Origin: Escherichia phage UP19
Strand: one strand, 5' to 3'
Sequence record: OX638288
Length of the DNA stretch: 64,000 nucleotides
The notes under the pieces are model-generated. The model was not told the DNA's origin and searched no databases. It worked only from the letters and a program-made list of their open reading frames with translations. Each line of letters opens with the position of its first letter. Position 1 is the first letter of the stretch. The position numbers were made by a program, and so were the translations under genes. Of the stretch, positions 41,919 through 50,376 are shown in pieces.

Positions 41919-42182
41919 ATGGATAATTATGGTGAATTGTTTAATTTCTTTATGAAATGCGTTCCTGAAGAATTTGGTGCTACAGTAAACGATATTAAAG
42001 TTATAGGTGATGACCATCCTATATTTGAAACTTACGCAGTAATGGGTAATGACGATGGGCAGTGGTATACCGTAAAGGTTGTGGTTAATATGTTTGCTGC
42101 TGAAGGGTACGTTAAATTGTCGACCAAAGTTTATCACGATAATGATTTTGATGCGGAAGATTATTTCAATAATATGAAATAA
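41919..42182 (+). CDS. Hypothetical protein
   Basis: ATG 41919 preceded by AAGGAGAG; the ORF-track start at 41904 is a GTG. Confidence 0.5.
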   Translation: MDNYGELFNFFMKCVPEEFGATVNDIKVIGDDHPIFETYAVMGNDDGQWYTVKVVVNMFAAEGYVKLSTKVYHDNDFDAEDYFNNMK

Positions 42183-42184
42183 TT

Positions 42185-42214
42185 GTTTACAACCCTCAGA
42201 GGACAGGGTATAAT
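42185..42214 (+). promoter_or_regulatory. Early promoter with canonical TATAAT flanked by inverted repeat GAGGACA/TGTCCTC
   Basis: GTTTAC 42185-42190, 17-bp spacer, TATAAT 42209-42214. Confidence 0.6.
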
Positions 42215-42257
42215 GTCCTCATGGATTACAAAATACCAACCAACTGAAGGAAATACT

Positions 42258-42851
42258 ATGAATACTTTAAAGAAAATTGTTGAGTTCATCCGTTCTAAAC
42301 TGGGTACCGCAATGACTCAGAACCTGTCAATTGAAGACCAGTATACTAAAGCTGCTTCTACCCTGATTGATAAAATTACCGAACTTCAGACTGCTCATGT
42401 TAAGTCGGTGAATGAAGAAAAACGCATTCGTGCATTGGCAAATGAAAAAGACCAGCTCGCTGCTTCTAAAGAACGTGAAATTCGTAAACTGATTAAAGAA
42501 GGCGCCGATGTTCAGGTGCATGCTAAACTAGGCCTCCTTTATCGTCGTACCGCTAATCAACTTCGTAAGAAAGCAGACGATTATATCGAAATGCGTAATG
42601 AAATTAAACTGAAGGTCAAGGAACTTGATGACTCTCGTCAAGAACTGGCTGTTAAGCTCGAGTACATCCGTGAAACTCGTAATATGGCTGCCCTTGGTAT
42701 TGCTACTGCCGATGATGTGGTTGAAATCGCTGCACTGACTAAGATTGATATTGAAGATACCCTGCTGCGTGTAGAAACGTTTAAAGGCCCACAAGTTGGA
42801 ATGGATACGACTTCAGCTGATATCGAAGACTACATTAATTCACTTAAGTAA
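42258..42851 (+). CDS. Coiled-coil protein, function unknown
   Basis: ATG 42258 after AAGGAAA; about 197 aa of amphipathic helix. Confidence 0.5.
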
Positions 42852-42858
42852 TATTACC

Positions 42859-42880
42859 GGGAGACTTCGGTCTCCCTATT
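42859..42880 (+). terminator. Intrinsic terminator
   Basis: GGGAGAC-TTCG-GTCTCCC followed by TATTT. Confidence 0.6.
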
Positions 42881-42899
42881 TGGAGGAGAGGAGAATATT

Positions 42900-43442
42900 A
42901 TGAGTTTATATGATAACCTTATATCAAATATTGATTGGTTTAAAAATAGTGGTCTTTCCCATGAAACCAATTCAGTTCTTTATAGAATTCGCCAAGACCT
43001 AGGCTATTCAAACGATTTCTTAAGCAGAACATCTAGCCGTGGCGATACTACCAAATTACCTTTTATTTTTGCTTTAGCTGAAGACCTTTCTTTTGAAGAT
43101 GCTTTGGAAATTATTGACGTAAATCTGACTATTCAACGAGTGGAATTCGCTGGACTACGTTATTCAGTATATTCTTTAAATGAGAGCGATGATTGTGTGC
43201 TTCTTAATATGGCAGATGATGATTACCATTTAGTATGCTATGTGGCTTTAGAAAATGGTGATGTATTTGGAATGGTCGACCGTCGACCATCTTACACTGA
43301 TATTAAAAATTATGATAAAGCCGAGCTTGGTATCTTAACTGCTGAGTACACATTAGAAAGTCGTAAACAACAACGGAAGCTTAATCGCTTTATTGCTGAA
43401 TGCCGTGAATACGCTAAAGAGGTTCAAAATGGAACGGCCTAG
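42900..43442 (+). CDS. Hypothetical protein
   Basis: 180-aa ORF with GGAGGAGAGG SD upstream. Confidence 0.5.
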   Translation: MSLYDNLISNIDWFKNSGLSHETNSVLYRIRQDLGYSNDFLSRTSSRGDTTKLPFIFALAEDLSFEDALEIIDVNLTIQRVEFAGLRYSVYSLNESDDCVLLNMADDDYHLVCYVALENGDVFGMVDRRPSYTDIKNYDKAELGILTAEYTLESRKQQRKLNRFIAECREYAKEVQNGTA

Positions 43443-43782
43443 TCTTTCATCGCATGTTTATCAATTGGCTGAATATGATATTGCTATTTCCTTATTCACG
43501 GGAATTGTCACAGGTATGCTCGGCGGTCTGGTTGGTCTGGTAATGACCACAGTTATGGCTGCAATCGAAGGAGTCATGCCTATTGAGATGGGTTTCTATA
43601 TGATAATCGCTCCGGCTGTCGTGGCTTATTTTATCCCTCTTGTGTATGATATTTGCCATACAAATGCTTTGAATGCTCCCATCCGTAAGAGATATGCTTT
43701 AGAGATGGCTAATTATAATGAGTATGTAAAACAAACCAAACGTAATGACCTTGAAACCTTTATTAAGGAATGTAAATCATGA
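43429..43782 (+). CDS. Membrane protein with two or three transmembrane helices; paralog of 47860..48447
   Basis: Hydrophobic helices; C-terminal tail ..KRNDLETFIKECKS resembles ..KKNALNSFIEECRK of the other gene. Confidence 0.45.
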   Translation: MERPSLSSHVYQLAEYDIAISLFTGIVTGMLGGLVGLVMTTVMAAIEGVMPIEMGFYMIIAPAVVAYFIPLVYDICHTNALNAPIRKRYALEMANYNEYVKQTKRNDLETFIKECKS

Positions 43783-44069
43783 ATAAAATTGAAATTGAAA
43801 TCCCTGAATACAACGACGAGAAATCTGCAGAAAAAGCTATCTATGCTCTTCTGAATAAAGTAGATACCATCGAACATGAATGTGAAGCTATTGCTGATAA
43901 GTACGGTATTCAATTCGGAACAGGTGATTATGGCTCAGGACGTACATACTACCCTGTTGGTTATGAATGCTCCCAGTGGTTTAAAGATGAAATTGAAAAC
44001 AATGGTGGTGAAGTTGAAAATGGCGTCGTTACAGTTGGTGCCTGGATCTCCTCTTCAGCATTATGCTAA
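43779..44069 (+). CDS. Tandem small-paralog family member 1 (C-terminus ..GAWISSSALC)
   Basis: 96 aa; conserved TGCTAAGG stop/SD junction to the next gene. Confidence 0.55.
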   Translation: MNKIEIEIPEYNDEKSAEKAIYALLNKVDTIEHECEAIADKYGIQFGTGDYGSGRTYYPVGYECSQWFKDEIENNGGEVENGVVTVGAWISSSALC

Positions 44070-44078
44070 GGAAACGCT

Positions 44079-44360
44079 ATGATGAATGATAATCATAACC
44101 ACCCAGAGCTTCTGGCCGCAGTAAAAGAAATTCATGAAGCTATTCGTCGTGCCGAGGAAATTGCAGACAAATATGAGACTCATTTTAATATATACCCTGC
44201 TCGCGGTATGGGCGGTGACTATTATTCTCCTGGCGCCCTGAAAGCTGACCTAGCCCACTGGGAAGAAGATGGTCATCCTGAATGGGCTATTGTTAATACT
44301 CATGACTATACAACTGACCTGGAAAATGGTGGTTGGGTGTCCTCTTCTTCTGAATGTTAA
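44079..44360 (+). CDS. Tandem small-paralog family member 2 (..GGWVSSSSEC)
   Basis: 93 aa; shares IADKY(G/E) with member 1. Confidence 0.55.
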   Translation: MMNDNHNHPELLAAVKEIHEAIRRAEEIADKYETHFNIYPARGMGGDYYSPGALKADLAHWEEDGHPEWAIVNTHDYTTDLENGGWVSSSSEC

Positions 44361-44369
44361 GGAAATATT

Positions 44370-44567
44370 ATGTCTCGTGAATTAGATTGTGCAATCCGTA
44401 CTGCCGCCGCGGCTATTGAAAACGTTATCCAGATTTGCAAAGAAGAACGTGAAGAAGCTGATATCTATATCGATGGTGTTCGTGACCTGGAACGACATAT
44501 CACGCTTTACAATGGTTGTATTACAATTAGTGGTACCTCTTGGGTGTCCTCCTCTTACGAATGCTAA
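44370..44567 (+). CDS. Tandem small-paralog family member 3 (..TSWVSSSYEC)
   Basis: 65 aa; same C-terminal motif and junction. Confidence 0.55.
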   Translation: MSRELDCAIRTAAAAIENVIQICKEEREEADIYIDGVRDLERHITLYNGCITISGTSWVSSSYEC

Positions 44568-44576
44568 GGTAATAAA

Positions 44577-44789
44577 ATGACTATTGATGAAATTGAAAAA
44601 CAAATCCGTGAATTAGTACGTAAAGGCCAGTCCGTGGCTGATGAAACAGGTGAAGAGTTCCATGTTTCCGGTCGTGGACAATACATTTCTCCAAAGAATC
44701 CGGAATATGATGATTACGAATGGGCCCGTGATGATTACGGTATCCCAGATGGTGAAGGTTTCTGGTTTACATCCTCTATGTCTTGCTAA
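44577..44789 (+). CDS. Tandem small-paralog family member 4 (..FWFTSSMSC)
   Basis: 70 aa; same motif and junction. Confidence 0.55.
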   Translation: MTIDEIEKQIRELVRKGQSVADETGEEFHVSGRGQYISPKNPEYDDYEWARDDYGIPDGEGFWFTSSMSC

Positions 44790-44798
44790 GGTGATAAA

Positions 44799-45023
44799 AT
44801 GTCTGATATTAATGAATTAGAAAAAGCTGCTCTTGAACTGGCTGCATTGTATAAGAAAGTAAAAGATATGGCTTCTGCTCAAAGTTTTGGTGTTGAGTTA
44901 GACGATTACGATGGTGAAGTTCGTCTTGAAGATTGGTTGAATAGCTCTTGTTACGGCGAAGAAGCTGGTCGCACCTTCGTTGCTCGTTCCGATGGTAAAA
45001 TCTGGTACCCGAGCTCATGCTAA
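44799..45023 (+). CDS. Tandem small-paralog family member 5 (..KIWYPSSC)
   Basis: 74 aa; same motif. Confidence 0.55.
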   Translation: MSDINELEKAALELAALYKKVKDMASAQSFGVELDDYDGEVRLEDWLNSSCYGEEAGRTFVARSDGKIWYPSSC

Positions 45024-45244
45024 AATTAAAGAAAAGATACATTCGTAAAATAAACGGTCTTCGCGATTATGCCAAAGGTTGGCCATTAAGTATTATTATG
45101 GCTGATAGACACCCACGTTATAATACTGAGATGACCTATTATAAAAAGTATGATTCATATTGTCGGTCTAAAGCAGGTCGTTTAGATGGTTCTTATGAAG
45201 AATATTTTGGCAAAAAACCTACTCGTATTTCGTTAGGAAAATAA
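45017..45244 (+). CDS. Hypothetical basic protein
   Basis: 75-aa ORF; start uncertain because it overlaps the previous stop. Confidence 0.3.
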   Translation: MLKLKKRYIRKINGLRDYAKGWPLSIIMADRHPRYNTEMTYYKKYDSYCRSKAGRLDGSYEEYFGKKPTRISLGK

Positions 45245-45253
45245 TTTAGCCAC

Positions 45254-45604
45254 ATGGACGTGGTAGGAGGACTTATGCACAAAGATTCAGTATTCAAATA
45301 TCTTTTGAAAACAGATAAAGAATTCTATATGAATGGGCAAGCTTTCTTGTTCGTTCGTGGTAAACGTGAGATGTTTTATAAATGCGACCTCTCAATGCAC
45401 CATCACATGTATCATACTCATGGTGAGCCTATACTAGGGTTCTCTGGTGACGAGACTAGACGCATAGCTATGTATTATGACCATTTTAAGCTCAATGACT
45501 GTGGTGACAACGCTTTGGTCTGGAATCCATCTTGGCGTCGTTGGGATACGGTAGACAACGATAAATTATTTTTAGAATATTGCAGAAGTGATGTACAACT
45601 CTAA
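45254..45604 (+). CDS. Hypothetical protein
   Basis: 116-aa ORF; His-rich segment. Confidence 0.4.
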   Translation: MDVVGGLMHKDSVFKYLLKTDKEFYMNGQAFLFVRGKREMFYKCDLSMHHHMYHTHGEPILGFSGDETRRIAMYYDHFKLNDCGDNALVWNPSWRRWDTVDNDKLFLEYCRSDVQL

Positions 45605-45647
45605 AAACTTGTGTTACTATTACCTTACACAAACATGAGGAGAACAT

Positions 45648-45887
45648 ATGTGGTATTACTCTCCATTGTCTGATAAGTCTGATGAGCCGGTACGAATTAC
45701 TCGTGCCAAGTTTAAAAAGATTTATGGTTTTGCCTATAAGAAGTCTGATTATGGTGTTCGTTTTGAAGATGCTCACTGTATCAATGACCCTTATACAGAA
45801 GAAATCTCTAATGAGATAATTCCTATCATTAAGAATAATTCTGATGATATGTGGGAATTGCATAACGATTACGTTGCTGAAATTTAA
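45648..45887 (+). CDS. Hypothetical protein
   Basis: 79 aa; GAGGAG SD before the ATG. Confidence 0.45.
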   Translation: MWYYSPLSDKSDEPVRITRAKFKKIYGFAYKKSDYGVRFEDAHCINDPYTEEISNEIIPIIKNNSDDMWELHNDYVAEI

Positions 45888-45908
45888 GTTTACTCTGAGG
45901 AAAATATT

Positions 45909-46868
45909 ATGATGCTAGTTATTGGTTCTCGTGCACTGCACCATGCAGGTCTGATTGAAAGTAAGTATATAGAAAATTCTGATTGGGATTTCATTGCCGA
46001 CCAAGGCTCGTGGAATCAATTTAAAGCCCGGATGTTCGGTGCTCACGTTCCTGTGGATAATCCAGATGTCCAGGCTTTTAAATGCATGTACAATGGTAAA
46101 GAAACCTATTTTGAAGCTTATATCGTTCGTGCTCTGACTAACGTACGAGAAATTACCGGTGAGCTTCAAGACGAAGATTTCACTTCAAGCTATCGTCTCC
46201 TGAAATATGCTGAAACCCATATTCAAAAGGACCGTCTTACTGGTTTCTATTGGGCAACCCCTGATATCTGTCTGGCTATCAAAATGAGCCATCGTTATTT
46301 GAAGAACAACCCGTTCTTTTTGAAGACGATGTCCCACATCAAATATCTTCGTAATAAAGGTGTAACCTTGAATGAAGAGCTCCAAGAAATCATGTTGCAA
46401 CGTCAGAAAGAAACGTTGAGCTATTCTCATCCTAAATTGGATGTAAACAAATCATCATTCTTTAATGATACCATTTATACGCTAGACCATGACTCTATCC
46501 ACGAAGCTGTGGCATTGGCTGGACGCCCTGCATATACCTTTTATATGAAGGAAGGTTCTGAAGTCATGACCTCACGTGAGAAGTTTGAAGCTTTGCCTGA
46601 AGCTATTAAACTGGCTGGCGTATATGAAGAAACTTGTGTGTTGGCCCTAGAACGTTCACAGGTTCCTAACAACTTTAATATTTCACCGTCATTAAGTTTC
46701 TATATGGCTCTTGAGAAAGTGTGTACCTCAATCACTTCAGGCTGGTTCCGTGAGTATGCCTGGGAAAACTACCAAGCTGTAGTGAATATGTATAAGACCC
46801 TAGGTGAAAATGACTACATCAAGCGGTTCCAAGATAACCATCATTTAATTCGTCCTTTCGAAAAATAA
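45909..46868 (+). CDS. Hypothetical protein (319 aa)
   Basis: Long ORF with GAGGAAAATATT-ATG junction. Confidence 0.5.
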   Translation: MMLVIGSRALHHAGLIESKYIENSDWDFIADQGSWNQFKARMFGAHVPVDNPDVQAFKCMYNGKETYFEAYIVRALTNVREITGELQDEDFTSSYRLLKYAETHIQKDRLTGFYWATPDICLAIKMSHRYLKNNPFFLKTMSHIKYLRNKGVTLNEELQEIMLQRQKETLSYSHPKLDVNKSSFFNDTIYTLDHDSIHEAVALAGRPAYTFYMKEGSEVMTSREKFEALPEAIKLAGVYEETCVLALERSQVPNNFNISPSLSFYMALEKVCTSITSGWFREYAWENYQAVVNMYKTLGENDYIKRFQDNHHLIRPFEK

Positions 46869-46880
46869 TTGCATAAAACA

Positions 46881-46909
46881 GTATACAAGGTCTATAGGTG
46901 TGATACTAT
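46881..46909 (+). promoter_or_regulatory. Early promoter module (degenerate -35 GTATAC)
   Basis: TACTATAGACCTATCAA box; spacer GGTCTATAG pairs with the -10 region. Confidence 0.5.
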
Positions 46910-46946
46910 AGACCTATCAAAACAACAGAGTGAAATGGAGAATAAA

Positions 46947-47159
46947 ATGAAACTTTCTAACCAAGCAATCAACATGTTAAACGAAGTTCGTGCAGCTGGT
47001 GCTAAATGTCTGATGGTTAACACTCGTGACGGTGACCTTCGTCAAGCATTTGGTGAATTGAAATCTGCTGACCTGGTTAAATGTTCAGTTGGTATCGGTA
47101 ACGCACTTCGTGTATCCTTATCCCCTAAAGGTAAAATGTACTTTTTCAACAAAAAGTAA
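46947..47159 (+). CDS. Hypothetical small protein
   Basis: ATG 46947 after GGAG; the ORF-track start at 46869 precedes the promoter and is TTG. Confidence 0.45.
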   Translation: MKLSNQAINMLNEVRAAGAKCLMVNTRDGDLRQAFGELKSADLVKCSVGIGNALRVSLSPKGKMYFFNKK

Positions 47160-47173
47160 TTGAGGAAAATATT

Positions 47174-47860
47174 ATGAACAGCCCGAAAACTTTTAATTCC
47201 AAAGCTCGTGCAGTGGGTAGTTTTGCCGGTAAAATTTCTAACGATAAAATCAAAAACGAAACTATGTTCTTCAACAGCTCATTGGCTTTCGCTTTTGATA
47301 ATGGTGGCCCTATTACTCGCAGCTTCATCATGAACCTGCCGGATGATTGGAACACTGACCAGGTTGTATTTGATTCTCGAGTTCATATGCTTATGCCTGG
47401 TTGGTATCCTGCTATCCCAGGTTATCACCATGATGATGTACCACGCCCGGATATTCCGGTTGGTCAACACTTTATTACCGCAGGGCAACCTGATTATGAT
47501 AATCCTCGATACCATTCTGAACATATTCTTGGTCTTGTTAACGCTGATGTGTGTCCTACTTATTTTGCAACCGGAACTGCACAATTTAGCCAGATTCCTG
47601 AAGGCGAACTTATCTATCGCCAGTGGCATAAAGAAGTTCTGGAAAAAATTGAGTCCAATGAATTAACCAAGTGGGATGCTCCTGACCGCACATTGCTCCA
47701 GTTTGATTGGCAGACGTGGCATACTGGTTCTCGTGCAGTAAGTAATGGCTGGCGCTGGTTTGGTCGTGTGTCCCGTAATACCGACCGTGTTAAAAAGATT
47801 ACAAATGAAATCCGCGTTAATGCTCAAGTATATCTGGAATTCCCTATGGAGGGCTGGTAA
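47174..47860 (+). CDS. Hypothetical protein (228 aa)
   Basis: ORF with GAGGAAAATATT-ATG junction. Confidence 0.5.
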   Translation: MNSPKTFNSKARAVGSFAGKISNDKIKNETMFFNSSLAFAFDNGGPITRSFIMNLPDDWNTDQVVFDSRVHMLMPGWYPAIPGYHHDDVPRPDIPVGQHFITAGQPDYDNPRYHSEHILGLVNADVCPTYFATGTAQFSQIPEGELIYRQWHKEVLEKIESNELTKWDAPDRTLLQFDWQTWHTGSRAVSNGWRWFGRVSRNTDRVKKITNEIRVNAQVYLEFPMEGW

Positions 47861-48447
47861 TGGCCCTTTATGAACCTGGTTGCATGGGTGTTGATGTAAA
47901 CTTCATCCGTCGGTCAGAAAATGCCGGAATCATTATCCCAAGTGGTGAACATATGATTATTAAAAAGTCCTGGCGAAATATTGATGATGGGGATGAAGGA
48001 ATTTCAGCCAGTACAATAGATTGGTCAGGTTGTACTGCTGAAATGAAACAACTTTTAATTGAGGAATATAAAATGGGCTATATCGTAAATGGTTGGCAAC
48101 CAGAACCCCATAAAGAACAGACACCAGACCCATTGATTTGTTATAGCAAAAAATACGGCTTTCGTACATGGAGTGATGAATACGACAAATTAGTGAGTTC
48201 TAGGTTCTATGTTTGGATGGGGATATTATTTTTCCCACTCCTAGGGTTTTTCCTGACAACGGATAATGACTTACCTATTAGTGTGTTTGCTTCAGCGATG
48301 TCGGCGGCAATCTTAGGGCTTATTGCATCATTTTTATGGACTGCAGTTATTGAAGTACCTTTTCGTATTTCTAAAGTTAAAAAGGTGTATGACGATATCA
48401 CTAAGAAAAATGCATTAAACTCTTTTATTGAGGAATGCCGTAAATGA
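47860..48447 (+). CDS. Membrane protein, paralog of 43429..43782
   Basis: 195 aa; C-terminal transmembrane helices and conserved ..FIEECRK tail. Confidence 0.5.
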   Translation: MALYEPGCMGVDVNFIRRSENAGIIIPSGEHMIIKKSWRNIDDGDEGISASTIDWSGCTAEMKQLLIEEYKMGYIVNGWQPEPHKEQTPDPLICYSKKYGFRTWSDEYDKLVSSRFYVWMGILFFPLLGFFLTTDNDLPISVFASAMSAAILGLIASFLWTAVIEVPFRISKVKKVYDDITKKNALNSFIEECRK

Positions 48448-48680
48448 GTATTGCGATTTATATTAAATCCGAGTCATGCGATTCTTATCTGTATTCCTAT
48501 GACACCGGAACATCAGAAGAGAAAATCAAAGAAGATTTAGAAACCGACTTGGATATGTTCCGTCCTATTTCTGACTATATGGTCCAAGTGTCTGATAGTG
48601 AAAGCCCGTCATTAGAAAATAGACTTGAATTTTTAATGAGCGATATTTTTAACCAATCATGGAAACGTGATGATGAGTAA
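48444..48680 (+). CDS. Hypothetical acidic small protein
   Basis: 78 aa; overlaps the upstream stop. Confidence 0.4.
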   Translation: MSIAIYIKSESCDSYLYSYDTGTSEEKIKEDLETDLDMFRPISDYMVQVSDSESPSLENRLEFLMSDIFNQSWKRDDE

Positions 48681-49122
48681 GAAAGTTAAAGAACTATCAG
48701 CCGGTATTTTGTTCATGACTGTCGATAAAGAATTGGTTATGGGTCGTGTAACAGGTTCTCGTAATCCAGAGAATATGCGTCATAAATGGGACATTCCTAA
48801 AGGCCATGTCGAACCAGGTGAAGAGCCTATTCAAGCTGCTATGCGTGAAACCGAAGAAGAGATTGGATTCACTGCATATGACCCTGCGTTCCTGAAAGAC
48901 CTAGGTGAGTTCAAATATTCTAGCAATAAGAATCTACATCTGTTCTTATATACTGTGCCTGTCGAACACGAGCAGTTCAAGGATTGCAAATGTACCGCTT
49001 ATCATACGTTCCCTGACGGCCGTACGATTCCTGAATTCGATGCCTTTGCCTTGATTAAACGTCCGCAATGGGAATATGTCATGGGCCCGTCGATGTTTAA
49101 GGTTTTAGATTCGCTCTTTTGA
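48670..49122 (+). CDS. nudE: Nudix hydrolase (T4 NudE / e.1-like)
   Basis: Nudix box GHVEPGEEPIQAAMRETEEEIG; immediately upstream of e as in T4; first ATG at 48670. Confidence 0.8.
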   Translation: MMSKKVKELSAGILFMTVDKELVMGRVTGSRNPENMRHKWDIPKGHVEPGEEPIQAAMRETEEEIGFTAYDPAFLKDLGEFKYSSNKNLHLFLYTVPVEHEQFKDCKCTAYHTFPDGRTIPEFDAFALIKRPQWEYVMGPSMFKVLDSLF

Positions 49123-49130
49123 TATAAATA
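49123..49130 (+). promoter_or_regulatory. Late promoter TATAAATA for lysozyme e, inside an SD-sequestering hairpin
   Basis: TATAAATA followed by TACCTCCT..AGGAGGTA inverted repeat that pairs the e SD. Confidence 0.6.
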
Positions 49131-49152
49131 CCTCCTATAATCAGGAGGTATT

Positions 49153-49647
49153 ATGGATATTTTTGATATGTTACGTCAAGACGAAGGTCTTGATTTAAAT
49201 CTTTATAAAGACACTGAAGGTTATTGGACTATTGGTATTGGCCAGTTAGTTACCAAGAACCCATCTAAAGATGTTGCTCGTGCCGAACTTGACAAACTTA
49301 TGGGTCGGGTTTGCAATGGACGTATTACTATGGCTGAAGCTGAACAACTCTTTAACCGTTCAGTGGAAAATGCTCGTAGAGCTATAATGCGTAATCCTAA
49401 ATTGAAACCGGTTTATGATGTGCTGGACGAAGTTCGTCGTTGCGCGCTGATTAATATGGTCTTTCAAATGGGTGAAGCTGGTGTCGCTGGATTTACCAAC
49501 TCTCTGCGTATGCTCCAGCAGAAACGTTGGGATGATGCCGCAGTTAACCTGGTGCAGTCCCGTTGGTATAAGCAGACTCCGAATCGCGCTAAGCGAGTTA
49601 TCTCTACATTTAAAACAGGAACTTGGAAAGCATATGAAAACCTATAA
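49153..49647 (+). CDS. e: Endolysin (T4 lysozyme)
   Basis: 164 aa; catalytic E11, D20 and T26 conserved; roughly 70% identity by eye to T4 lysozyme as remembered. Confidence 0.93.
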
Positions 49648-49903
49648 AGAATTTTTGGCCGAATCTCAACTGAACGAAAACACTGACCTAGACCGTATGA
49701 CATTCCTGGCTAAGAAAGGCGGCTTCGAATTTAAAGCCATTAAGAAAGTAAATGGGTATTCTTTTGAAGTCGGTGAATATACCTTTGGTAACAAGGGTGA
49801 TGGCCAGTGGCAAATTGTTAAAAACGGCAAAGAAGTAGACTACCTTTTCGGTAAGAAACTTAGTGACATTGCTAAAATAATGGGCGAATATTCTAAAAAA
49901 TAG
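49634..49903 (+). CDS. Internal-protein-like gene ([10 protein letters not shown]|S)
   Basis: Capsid-targeting leader; ATG 49634 overlaps the 3' end of e. Confidence 0.6.
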
Positions 49904-49931
49904 TTTACATCTCCTGTATGCATGATATTAT
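49903..49931 (+). promoter_or_regulatory. Early promoter module; spacer CTCCTGTA pairs with the denV SD TACAGGAG
   Basis: GTTTAC 49903-49908; TATTATAGACCTATCAA. Confidence 0.6.
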
Positions 49932-49959
49932 AGACCTATCAATTACAGGAGATTACAAA

Positions 49960-50376
49960 ATGACTCGTATCAACCTTACCTTAGTATCTGAATTGGCTGA
50001 CCAACACTTAATGGCTGAATACCGTGAATTACCACGTGTTTTCGGTGCAGTTCGTAAGCATGTTGCTAACGGTAAACGTGTTCGTGATTTTAAAATCAGC
50101 CCTACTTTTATCCTTGGTACAGGCCATGTTACATTCTTTTATGATAAGCTTGAATTTTTACGTAAGCGACAAATTGAGCTTATAGCCGAATGTTTAAAAC
50201 GTGGATTCAATATCAAGGATACTACTGTCCAAGACATTTCCGATATTCCACAGGAATTCCGTGGTGATTATATTCCTCACGAAGCTTCTATCGCTATTTC
50301 ACAAGCCCGTTTGGATGAAAAAATTGCACAGCGTCCTACCTGGTACAAATATTATGGTAAGGCTATTTACGCTTAA
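49960..50376 (+). CDS. denV: Endonuclease V (pyrimidine-dimer DNA glycosylase)
   Basis: [31 protein letters not shown].. appears near-identical to T4 DenV as remembered. Confidence 0.92.

Follow-up and report, generated by a model that had tools for sequence, protein, structure and literature searches.

A C-terminal tail common to early membrane and soluble proteins of T4-like phages, and its candidate role as a docking helix behind e.6

The window analysed here is a 64-kb stretch of Escherichia phage UP19 (record OX638288). Two of its open reading frames (ORFs), at 43429-43782 and 47860-48447, encode membrane proteins that share a C-terminal tail. The question raised by this locus is what the tail might do. 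According to an original prediction, made from the DNA letters alone, each membrane gene forms a repeated two-gene module with the small gene that follows it. We arrive at a different reading, to which we give a probability of roughly 50%. By analogy with bacterial systems, we propose that the tail is a shared docking or assembly helix of an early, dispensable membrane operon, resembling phage shock protein (Psp) operons, that lies behind the gene e.6. The product of e.6 would be the likeliest partner.

A shared tail in the e.6 to nudE region

UP19 is a Dhakavirus, a T4-type phage like JS98. In megablast, positions 42000-50000 match JS98, CLB_P2 and other Dhakavirus genomes (approximately 95% identity over 96-97% of the query). 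Following the JS98 annotation, the tail genes sit in the early 'e.x' block, upstream of nudE and the lysozyme gene e. Both ORFs singled out by the original prediction, with their tails and membrane helices, are present on the + strand. The ORF at 43429-43782 (+) encodes a 117-amino acid homologue of T4 e.3, with a hairpin of two transmembrane (TM) helices and a 41-residue cytoplasmic tail, as judged by profile, BLASTP and topology. It matches phrog_2330 with E=2.7e-46 (residues 1-117 against profile positions 1-122) and aligns full-length with T4 e.3 in BLASTP (E=2e-10, 1-116 against 1-117). T4 e.3 is listed as phrog_2330 in the supplement of PMC11879866. The ORF at 47860-48447 (+) encodes a 195-amino acid homologue of T4 e.2, composed of an N-terminal domain, a 2-TM hairpin and a 29-residue tail. 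Its PHROG profile match is to phrog_2203 (E=1.3e-70, residues 32-195), and PF26896 is precomputed on 29 of 29 database homologues. The match extends over the full length, with the N-domain motif W-x-x-[IL]-DDGD-x-G-I...DW-x-x-C and the C-terminal 2-TM region. A multi-genus alignment takes in T4-type, Mosigvirus, Kanagawavirus and Winklervirus e.2. The gene is the last, or second-to-last, ahead of nudE, on the same strand.

A third tail, absent from the original prediction, is found on the adjoining soluble protein of 180 amino acids (42900-43442, +; JS98 orf131, phrog_8788). It corresponds to T4 e.5 in position and, remotely, in sequence. Only the tail aligns with T4 e.5 in BLASTP (E=3e-4). 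In a multi-genus alignment of e.5-like proteins (A6), a body motif, YS..x.N, and the tail are held in common. Proteins of this type can be aligned across genera though their identity is very low. The tail genes of the window belong to known, uncharacterised T4 families.

The e.2-like ORF also has a 31-codon N-terminal extension (MALYEPGCMG..., 47860-47952, +), whose protein sequence is conserved in all Dhaka/Gapriver-type homologues. One such homologue has an in-frame insertion of 11 residues and still keeps the extension, which begins at a TAATG overlap with orf120 and has a GGAGG box ahead of it. The JS98 and JS10 annotations of e.2, beginning at Met32, are probably too short.

The e.3-like ORF ends in KRNDLETFIKECKS, the e.2-like ORF in KKNALNSFIEECRK and the soluble ORF in KLNRFIAECREYAKEVQNGTA, each followed by the stop codon. 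The tail cores are LETFIKECK (43750-43776), LNSFIEECR (48415-48441) and, in the soluble protein, LNRFIAECR (43380-43406), after which 11 residues remain. The C-termini of the e.2-like and e.3-like proteins have the motif L-x-x-F-I-x-E-C-[RK] in common. The two were originally described as near-identical; since 7 of 14 residues are identical, the shared motif stands and near-identity does not.

The similarity of the tails is significant, but confined to approximately 18 residues. Pairwise BLASTP of the e.2-like and e.3-like proteins gave E=1e-4, over 58 residues spanning TM2 and the tail, and the e.3-like ORF matches the e.2 PHROG profile at E=0.0028. Using hhalign, the e.2 family (alignment A4) and the small 2-TM family (A5) match with 93.6% probability and E=2.1e-7, in 18 columns corresponding to the tail only. 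Hence, common descent of the TM parts is possible, not demonstrable. The e.5-like family is joined to the e.2 and 2-TM families via the tail (E=1.8e-4 and 8.8e-5).

Both membrane proteins have two hydrophobic helices, at approximately residues 114-134 and 141-166 of the e.2-like protein. In each hairpin, 8 lysine or arginine residues follow helix 2; the loop between the helices contains none, and 2 acidic residues. By the positive-inside rule, both termini should thus be cytoplasmic, including the tail, in agreement with the location originally assigned to it. We conclude that the e.2-like and e.3-like proteins are, by predicted topology, N-in/C-in two-helix membrane hairpins. In an AlphaFold2 model of the e.2 homologue, a helical hairpin is formed by residues 105-133 and 140-194, with TM2 and the tail in one helix; the model was too poor for a fold search with the N-domain, and was used for the hairpin and tail only.

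To leave the other families out, a hidden Markov model (HMM) was built from six e.2 tails only and searched against 1273 six-frame ORFs (210 kb). After the e.2 proteins, the first match was the ORF at 43429 (E=4.5e-5), and 15 more C-terminal tails were recovered ahead of the first false match. Restriction of the tail to the cluster was assessed in the window and approximately 146 kb of related loci. Across the six reading frames of the window, the only real ORFs matching F-[IVL]-x-[ED]-C-[RK] are those at 42900, 43429 and 47860. Each of these three in-frame copies is C-terminal, and each is in a gene between e.6 and nudE. The loci of eleven further phages were compared using an HMM made from 16 tails. 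There are 3-5 tail-bearing ORFs per genome, always on the coding strand, with the motif 0-26 residues from the stop. Where nudE is present, they always lie within the e.6-to-nudE region. These counts apply to Dhakavirus, Tequatrovirus, Mosigvirus, Kanagawavirus, Winklervirus, Karamvirus and Klebsiella phage Roth66. Note that Winklervirus, Karamvirus and Roth66 were outside the HMM seed. Weaker tails occur directly 3' of e.6 in Aeromonas phage 65 (Ishigurovirus) and Citrobacter phage Miller (Pseudotevenvirus), and the copies in Providencia phage PSTCR6 are degenerate. At least 8 genera of T4-like phages have the tail.

Three classes of protein carry the tail: soluble e.5-like proteins, small 2-TM hairpins (e.4, e.3 and others), and e.2, in which the hairpin is joined to an N-terminal domain. 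The general form of the tail is [LIM]-x-x-F-[IV]-x-x-C-R-(K/R), predicted as a short amphipathic helix. On the metagenomic contig L018, tails reading LNSFVEN and LSSFVRDC occur two genes downstream of e.6. The tail HMM matches nothing downstream of the most distant e.6 relatives, on contigs L013-L017. As far as the literature could be searched, the shared tail of the e.2-e.5 proteins is undescribed.

Two of these metagenomic T4-like contigs have a further C-terminal signature. Downstream of very divergent e.6/PspA-like genes, L013 (5661-7123) and L017 (4690-6217) encode three proteins, membrane-anchored or soluble, that share ..AIVHRARLE.., ..GIIEQARKE.. or ..KIVEQAREE... The pattern, [IV][IV]xxAR, was picked by eye and gives 4 matches where 1.1 would be expected, and 3 of the 4 fall in the anticipated genes; the signal is weak and we do not rely on it. 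Judged from sequence, the signature may be a lineage-specific version of the tail.

In T4 itself, e.5 ends in LLEKFVKECREYVKAITIPSK, e.4 in IMKFVKESRCKSQS and e.3 in MKEFVIDCRKIK, each at the stop codon. The annotated T4 e.2 has 102 amino acids, and its tblastn match is in two pieces; it lacks the tail because the gene is frameshifted. The remnant, ending in NLNNFITECRKLK before the stop, lies in the 'gap' before nudE and bears the tail. An intact e.2 of 162 amino acids is present in wV7, as in most Tequatroviruses, and in this genus (T4, wV7) e.5-e.4-e.3-e.2-nudE are contiguous and overlapping.

Two side observations concern e.2. First, the lost TM2 and tail of T4 e.2 are readable in NC_000866 at 67491-67651, where an ORF of 51 codons, absent from the annotation, lies in the gap from nudE to e.2 and ends in WRLRRQQKIFDEKKYAQNLNNFITECRKLK and a stop. 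Second, in some phages a Dhakavirus-type N-domain, near-identical to about residue 81, is joined to a T4-type TM hairpin. Such mosaics (alignment A2, P0024-P0029 compared with 47860-48447 of the window) indicate recombination within the gene, with the terminal tail invariant.

The e.6 protein as the candidate partner of the tail

The cluster is headed by e.6 (42258-42851, +), encoding a protein of 197 amino acids that is 74% identical to T4 e.6. Just upstream, at 42186-42214 (+), is an early-type sigma-70 promoter-like site (TTTACA-17-TATAAT, 11/12), and a promoter is annotated at the equivalent position before e.6 in wV7. No terminator-like site was found on the + strand from e.6 to lysozyme e. 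Phage records with e.6 number 1110 and extend to phages of Aeromonas, Providencia and Citrobacter; the gene is far better conserved than those of the tail proteins. Public records label the product 'hypothetical' or 'host specificity protein', and precomputed annotations leave it unrecognised.

An AlphaFold2 model of e.6 has a predicted local distance difference test score (pLDDT) of 72.6, rising above 90 in the hairpin, and places helices at residues 2-22, 25-80, 86-145, 151-161, 165-172 and 186-196. The modelled arrangement is that of the ESCRT-III-type fold, with an N-terminal helix alpha0, a long alpha1/alpha2-3 hairpin and shorter helices alpha4 and alpha5. In a Foldseek search of the PDB with this model, the top 9 matches were all Vipp1 (probability 0.94-1.00, E 6e-3 to 7e-2); the list also holds archaeal CdvB2 and PspA. 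The hairpin alone gave a template modelling (TM) score of 0.71, with a root-mean-square deviation of 2.9 A. An exhaustive profile search of 1.84 billion representatives returned a tight e.6 family of 45. Pfam PspA_IM30 matches 4 of the 31 full-length members, with a best E=8.9e-10. One member, P0098, scores 35.1 bits, compared with a PspA_IM30 gathering score of 33.9, in a collinear alignment (7-146 against 3-143), and matches the e.6 profile at E=7e-21. An e.6 that passes the Pfam threshold is encoded by metagenomic contig L013. Furthermore, the broadened family profile (A7) matches Vipp1 chains in the PDB with E=3.4e-4 (1-146 against 1-147), and eight more Vipp1/PspA entries fall below 4e-3. 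The link between e.6 and Vipp1 is significant only with this broader family from the exhaustive search. From sequence profiles and the modelled fold, we conclude that e.6 is a predicted, divergent PspA/IM30/Vipp1 protein of the ESCRT-III superfamily.

PspA/Vipp1 is a bacterial ESCRT-III-like protein that binds and stabilises the stressed inner membrane. A full-text literature search returned no paper on a phage-encoded PspA, or on e.6 as a PspA-family protein; as far as that search showed, the PspA-like identity of e.6 is undescribed. The order of genes is well kept. In 11 of 12 annotated phage genomes, e.6 is followed directly by a gene for a tail-bearing protein, the motif in PSTCR6 being only degenerate. 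Synteny of the e.6 cluster holds in 12 genomes.

Docking of the tail to e.6 is proposed on several grounds. First, the tail is conserved at the protein level, as set out in the next section, and is cytoplasmic in every carrier class. Second, the L..FI..C spacing is hydrophobic on the predicted helix. Third, the tail is confined to the cluster and the order of e.6, then tail protein, is kept. Briefly, the common tail would tie different proteins (2-TM hairpins, a hairpin with a cytoplasmic domain, and a soluble protein) to one partner, for which an e.6 polymer is the best candidate. The hairpins would be its membrane anchors or adaptors, comparable to LiaI for LiaH, or PspB/PspC for PspA. In the membrane members, the tail helix would run on from the second TM helix into the cytoplasm. 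The operon might then serve membrane maintenance during infection. We infer each of these elements, namely the tail as a binding helix, e.6 as its ligand and the role in membrane maintenance, by analogy.

A broader form of the proposal, which we put forward tentatively, is that T4-type phages own a Psp-like membrane-maintenance system. This would consist of an e.6 polymer and changeable adaptors (e.5, e.4, e.3, e.2 and relatives) docking via an F-[IV]-x-x-C-R helix, with the hairpin adaptors anchoring or targeting e.6 to the inner membrane. Its task would be to maintain an energised membrane through injection, superinfection or lysis inhibition, or under attack from abortive-infection systems that disrupt membranes.

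Several observations weigh against docking to e.6 and the Psp-like operon. The e.6 of the window does not match Pfam PspA_IM30 (PF04012) at E<=0.1, hhalign of the e.6 alignment with a single E. coli PspA sequence was negative, and a 32-sequence profile (A3) lost the weak Vipp1 matches seen with A1. Hence, membership of e.6 in the family rests on transitive and structural evidence. Synteny around e.6 could merely reflect conserved T4-like gene order. The most distant relatives of e.6, on contigs L014 and L016, are followed by genes in which no tail can be recognised. Confidence in the AlphaFold2 model of the e.2 homologue is low (pLDDT 58.6). Some e.4-type tails have no Cys at the expected position (FIRNVRRK, FVKESRC), so that Cys is not essential. 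Finally, knock-down of T4 e.2-e.6 had no laboratory fitness effect (CRISPRi-ART supplement, PMC11879866). Hence, the operon is conditionally useful at most, and no phenotype indicates its function.

Logically, a binding helix might have another partner. The tail proteins could assemble with each other, in a hetero-oligomer with the Cys residues engaged in metal binding or disulfides, or the tail could bind a protein of the host, for example a protease/unfoldase or part of the bacterium's own Psp system. The same data that establish a protein-level module fit this explanation. A number of tail proteins are expressed together, their genes overlapping; the Cys hardly varies, the hydrophobic L..FI..C spacing is heptad-like and the C-termini are basic. 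However, there is no pointer to a particular host factor, and some e.4-type tails do without the Cys. A partner other than e.6 also leaves the constant order of e.6, then tail gene, unexplained, out to Aeromonas and Citrobacter phages. We regard this explanation as possible, though doubtful.

It is improbable, in our view, that the tail is a slowly decaying remnant of tandem duplication, with a generic role in insertion or stability and no common partner. The genes are indeed in tandem, the hairpin members are similar in size, and the e.3-like and e.2 proteins align weakly through TM2 too. Yet the tail is the best-conserved segment, the rest having diverged beyond recognition outside the 18 aligned columns. 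It is also kept on soluble proteins, which have no need of membrane insertion, and is maintained across Straboviridae subfamilies. Docking to e.6 remains our preferred reading.

Peptide signal, downstream genes and the inserted block

Conservation of the tail could, in principle, result from a constraint on nucleic acid: overlap of a Shine-Dalgarno (SD) sequence and start codon for translational coupling, or short homology boxes for gene shuffling. In many hairpin genes, the tail codons contain the SD of the gene downstream (e.2, GAGGAA; e.3-like gene, AAGGAA; T4 e.3 and wV7 e.2, AGGAAA), and the stop of these genes overlaps the next ATG. Hence, part of the tail does double duty. Exchange of the N-domain, and of the TM-plus-tail part, between lineages in mosaic e.2 would also suit homology boxes. 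However, the codons of the motif vary freely between synonyms (TTT/TTC; ATT/ATC/ATA; GTT/GTG/GTA; TGT/TGC), with five in use for Arg (AGA, AGG, CGT, CGA and CGC). The SD is contributed by different codons in different genes. In e.5-type genes the motif is 6-25 codons ahead of the stop, with no start nearby, and in the e.2 family the tail is invariant even where the TM region has been exchanged for the T4 type. Together, these properties argue for selection on the peptide. A degenerate DNA pattern for F-[IV]-x-x-C-R occurs 6 times in the window against 2.6 expected and, outside the in-frame copies, is not notably enriched. It is the reading frame and the C-terminal placement that carry the signal, and not the DNA. 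We consider a nucleic-acid constraint very improbable as the cause of the tail.

What, then, of the small genes? As originally noted, each membrane gene is overlapped at its stop by a small acidic gene, with ATGA at 43779 and 48444 and isoelectric points of 4.26 and 4.08, respectively. The first (43779-44069, +; phrog_899) overlaps the stop of the e.3-like gene. The second (48444-48680, +; 78 amino acids, phrog_2900, JS98 orf118) overlaps both the e.2 stop and the start of nudE (48670-49122, +), the Nudix hydrolase gene at the downstream edge of the cluster. Lysozyme e follows at 49153-49647, positioned via the JS98 annotation. The two small genes gave no alignment in BLASTP and fall in different PHROGs; the product of 43779-44069 is neither a tail protein nor related to orf118.

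Nor do the small genes always accompany their supposed partners. A phrog_899 gene does follow an e.4/e.3-type hairpin gene in Dhakavirus, Kanagawavirus, Mosigvirus, Winklervirus and Providencia phage PSTCR6; the Tequatrovirus cluster has none. There is no orf118 after e.2 in T4, wV7, PEi20 or Entb_45, and in Tequatrovirus and Kanagawavirus, which lack orf118, e.2 leads directly to nudE. In LC53, myPSH1140 and Roth66, orf118 follows genes other than e.2. Wherever it is present, which is only in some genera, orf118 is immediately upstream of nudE, whichever tail gene precedes it. Hence, it may be linked to nudE instead of e.2.

The appearance of a two-gene module can be explained by dense, translationally coupled T4 gene packing. 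In T4 and wV7, where e.5-e.4-e.3-e.2 are back to back, each 'overlapping downstream gene' is merely the next tail gene. In the window, the two membrane genes look like separate modules because a block of approximately 4.1 kb lies between them. We conclude, from the sequence comparisons, that the small downstream genes are translationally coupled neighbours, not dedicated partners.

Sequence searches of Pfam, NCBIfam, PADLOC and the PDB returned nothing usable for the tail proteins or the small genes. PADLOC gave one match, far below significance, for the e.3-like ORF (PDC-M48A, E=0.003, 15.8 bits, no stretch passing alone) and none for the remaining ORFs searched; no Imm/Sp-type or defence family was found in Pfam. 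With the small genes unrelated, their pairing not conserved and the tail on 3-5 proteins per genome, including soluble ones, two copies of a membrane protein with a dedicated small acidic partner, acting for example in superinfection exclusion, toxin/immunity or defence evasion, are most improbable despite the ATGA overlaps. Apart from any such module, the proteins might still act in superinfection exclusion or defence evasion.

The block divides the cluster in Dhakavirus, Mosigvirus and Kanagawavirus. Here it contains an array of phrog_899 genes, a DUF7275/DUF7277 protein and orf120. The array consists of five small, acidic tandem paralogues between 43779 and 45023 (+), at 43779-44069, 44079-44360, 44370-44567, 44577-44789 and 44799-45023. 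Their products share the C-terminal pattern W-x-SS-x(0-2)-C, whose Cys is the final residue (WISSSALC, WVSSSSEC, WVSSSYEC, WFTSSMSC and WYPSSC). The ORF at 45909-46868 (+; 319 amino acids) matches Pfam DUF7277 (E=1.9e-26) and DUF7275 (E=3.8e-78), and is a member of the inserted block in five genera. The orf120 gene (47174-47860, +; 228 amino acids, phrog_1843) overlaps the start of e.2. Its product is the best-conserved protein of the block, with phmmer E values of 1e-142 to 1e-154 against Kanagawavirus and Mosigvirus. It has a His/Asp-rich motif, PGYHHDDVPRPD, and no family assignment.

Meaning and comparison with known systems

In at least 8 genera, one short motif is common to the e.2-e.5 proteins, whose cluster is headed by a predicted PspA/Vipp1 homologue. 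The motif and the identity of e.6 turn an anonymous region into a testable hypothesis: a phage membrane-stress module with modular adaptors. The hypothesis also points to particular conditions: membrane stress, superinfection, lysis inhibition and defence systems that target the membrane. Were the tail to dock on an ESCRT-III-like polymer, it would be a compact and transferable recruitment tag, and the phage would have put the 'phage shock protein' fold to its own use, together with a new motif for docking adaptors. If docking proves false, a clean re-annotation still stands.

The closest comparison is with T4. Since the annotation of that genome, e.2-e.8 have been listed as 'conserved hypothetical', with e.2-e.5 as 'conserved hypothetical, predicted membrane proteins', and we know of no member of the e.2-e.5 families with a known function. 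For e.2-e.8, genome-wide knock-down gave no phenotype in the laboratory (supplement of PMC11879866). A full-text literature search for T4 e.2-e.6 and their accession numbers gave no relevant paper. The T4 families concerned are those of e.2, e.3, e.4 and e.5 (PHROGs 2203/35263, 2330, 2604 and 2607). The two membrane ORFs are direct homologues of e.2 and e.3, in the same position between e.6 and nudE; the ORF at 42900 is in the e.5 position and has the e.5 tail in common. In contrast to T4, the UP19 cluster is interrupted by the insert of approximately 4.1 kb (43779-47860) and contains no member of the e.4 family. Furthermore, UP19 e.2 has the conserved 31-residue N-terminal extension, whereas T4 e.2 is a tail-less, frameshifted remnant.

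T4 Imm and Sp are likewise small, early inner-membrane proteins that are dispensable in the laboratory. However, they are encoded at another locus, do not have the shared tail and give no Pfam or PHROG cross-match.

A different likeness is to SHOCT-like modules. These short modules recur on membrane and soluble proteins in PSP neighbourhoods, and are proposed assemblers of sub-membrane complexes (Ravi et al. 2024, PMC11237479). Both they and the phage tail are short terminal modules, on unrelated membrane and soluble proteins, beside PspA homologues. The phage tail is predicted to be a single helix of approximately 15-18 residues, with F-[IV]-x-x-C-R, whereas SHOCT is bi-helical, and the Pfam SHOCT (PF09851) and DUF1707 models do not match the tail proteins.

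In bacteria, an operon that contains a PspA-family gene typically also encodes small membrane proteins, which recruit or regulate the PspA-family product. PspC of Yersinia and E. coli binds PspA through a cytoplasmic segment. The PspA homologue LiaH is anchored at the membrane by LiaI (PMC9239133). Like LiaI-LiaH of Bacillus subtilis and PspB/PspC-PspA of enterobacteria, the phage cluster is predicted to combine small inner-membrane proteins with a PspA/IM30-family gene, e.6, in one operon. By analogy, the cytoplasmic parts of the phage proteins could likewise recruit e.6. No PspB, PspC or LiaI-LiaF-TM match was found for the ORFs at 42900, 43429 and 47860 using Pfam hmmscan at E<=0.1, or NCBIfam. 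Unlike PspB/PspC and LiaI, the putative phage adaptors are several, have one tail in common and include a soluble carrier. Moreover, they are encoded by the phage, with early expression in lytic infection.

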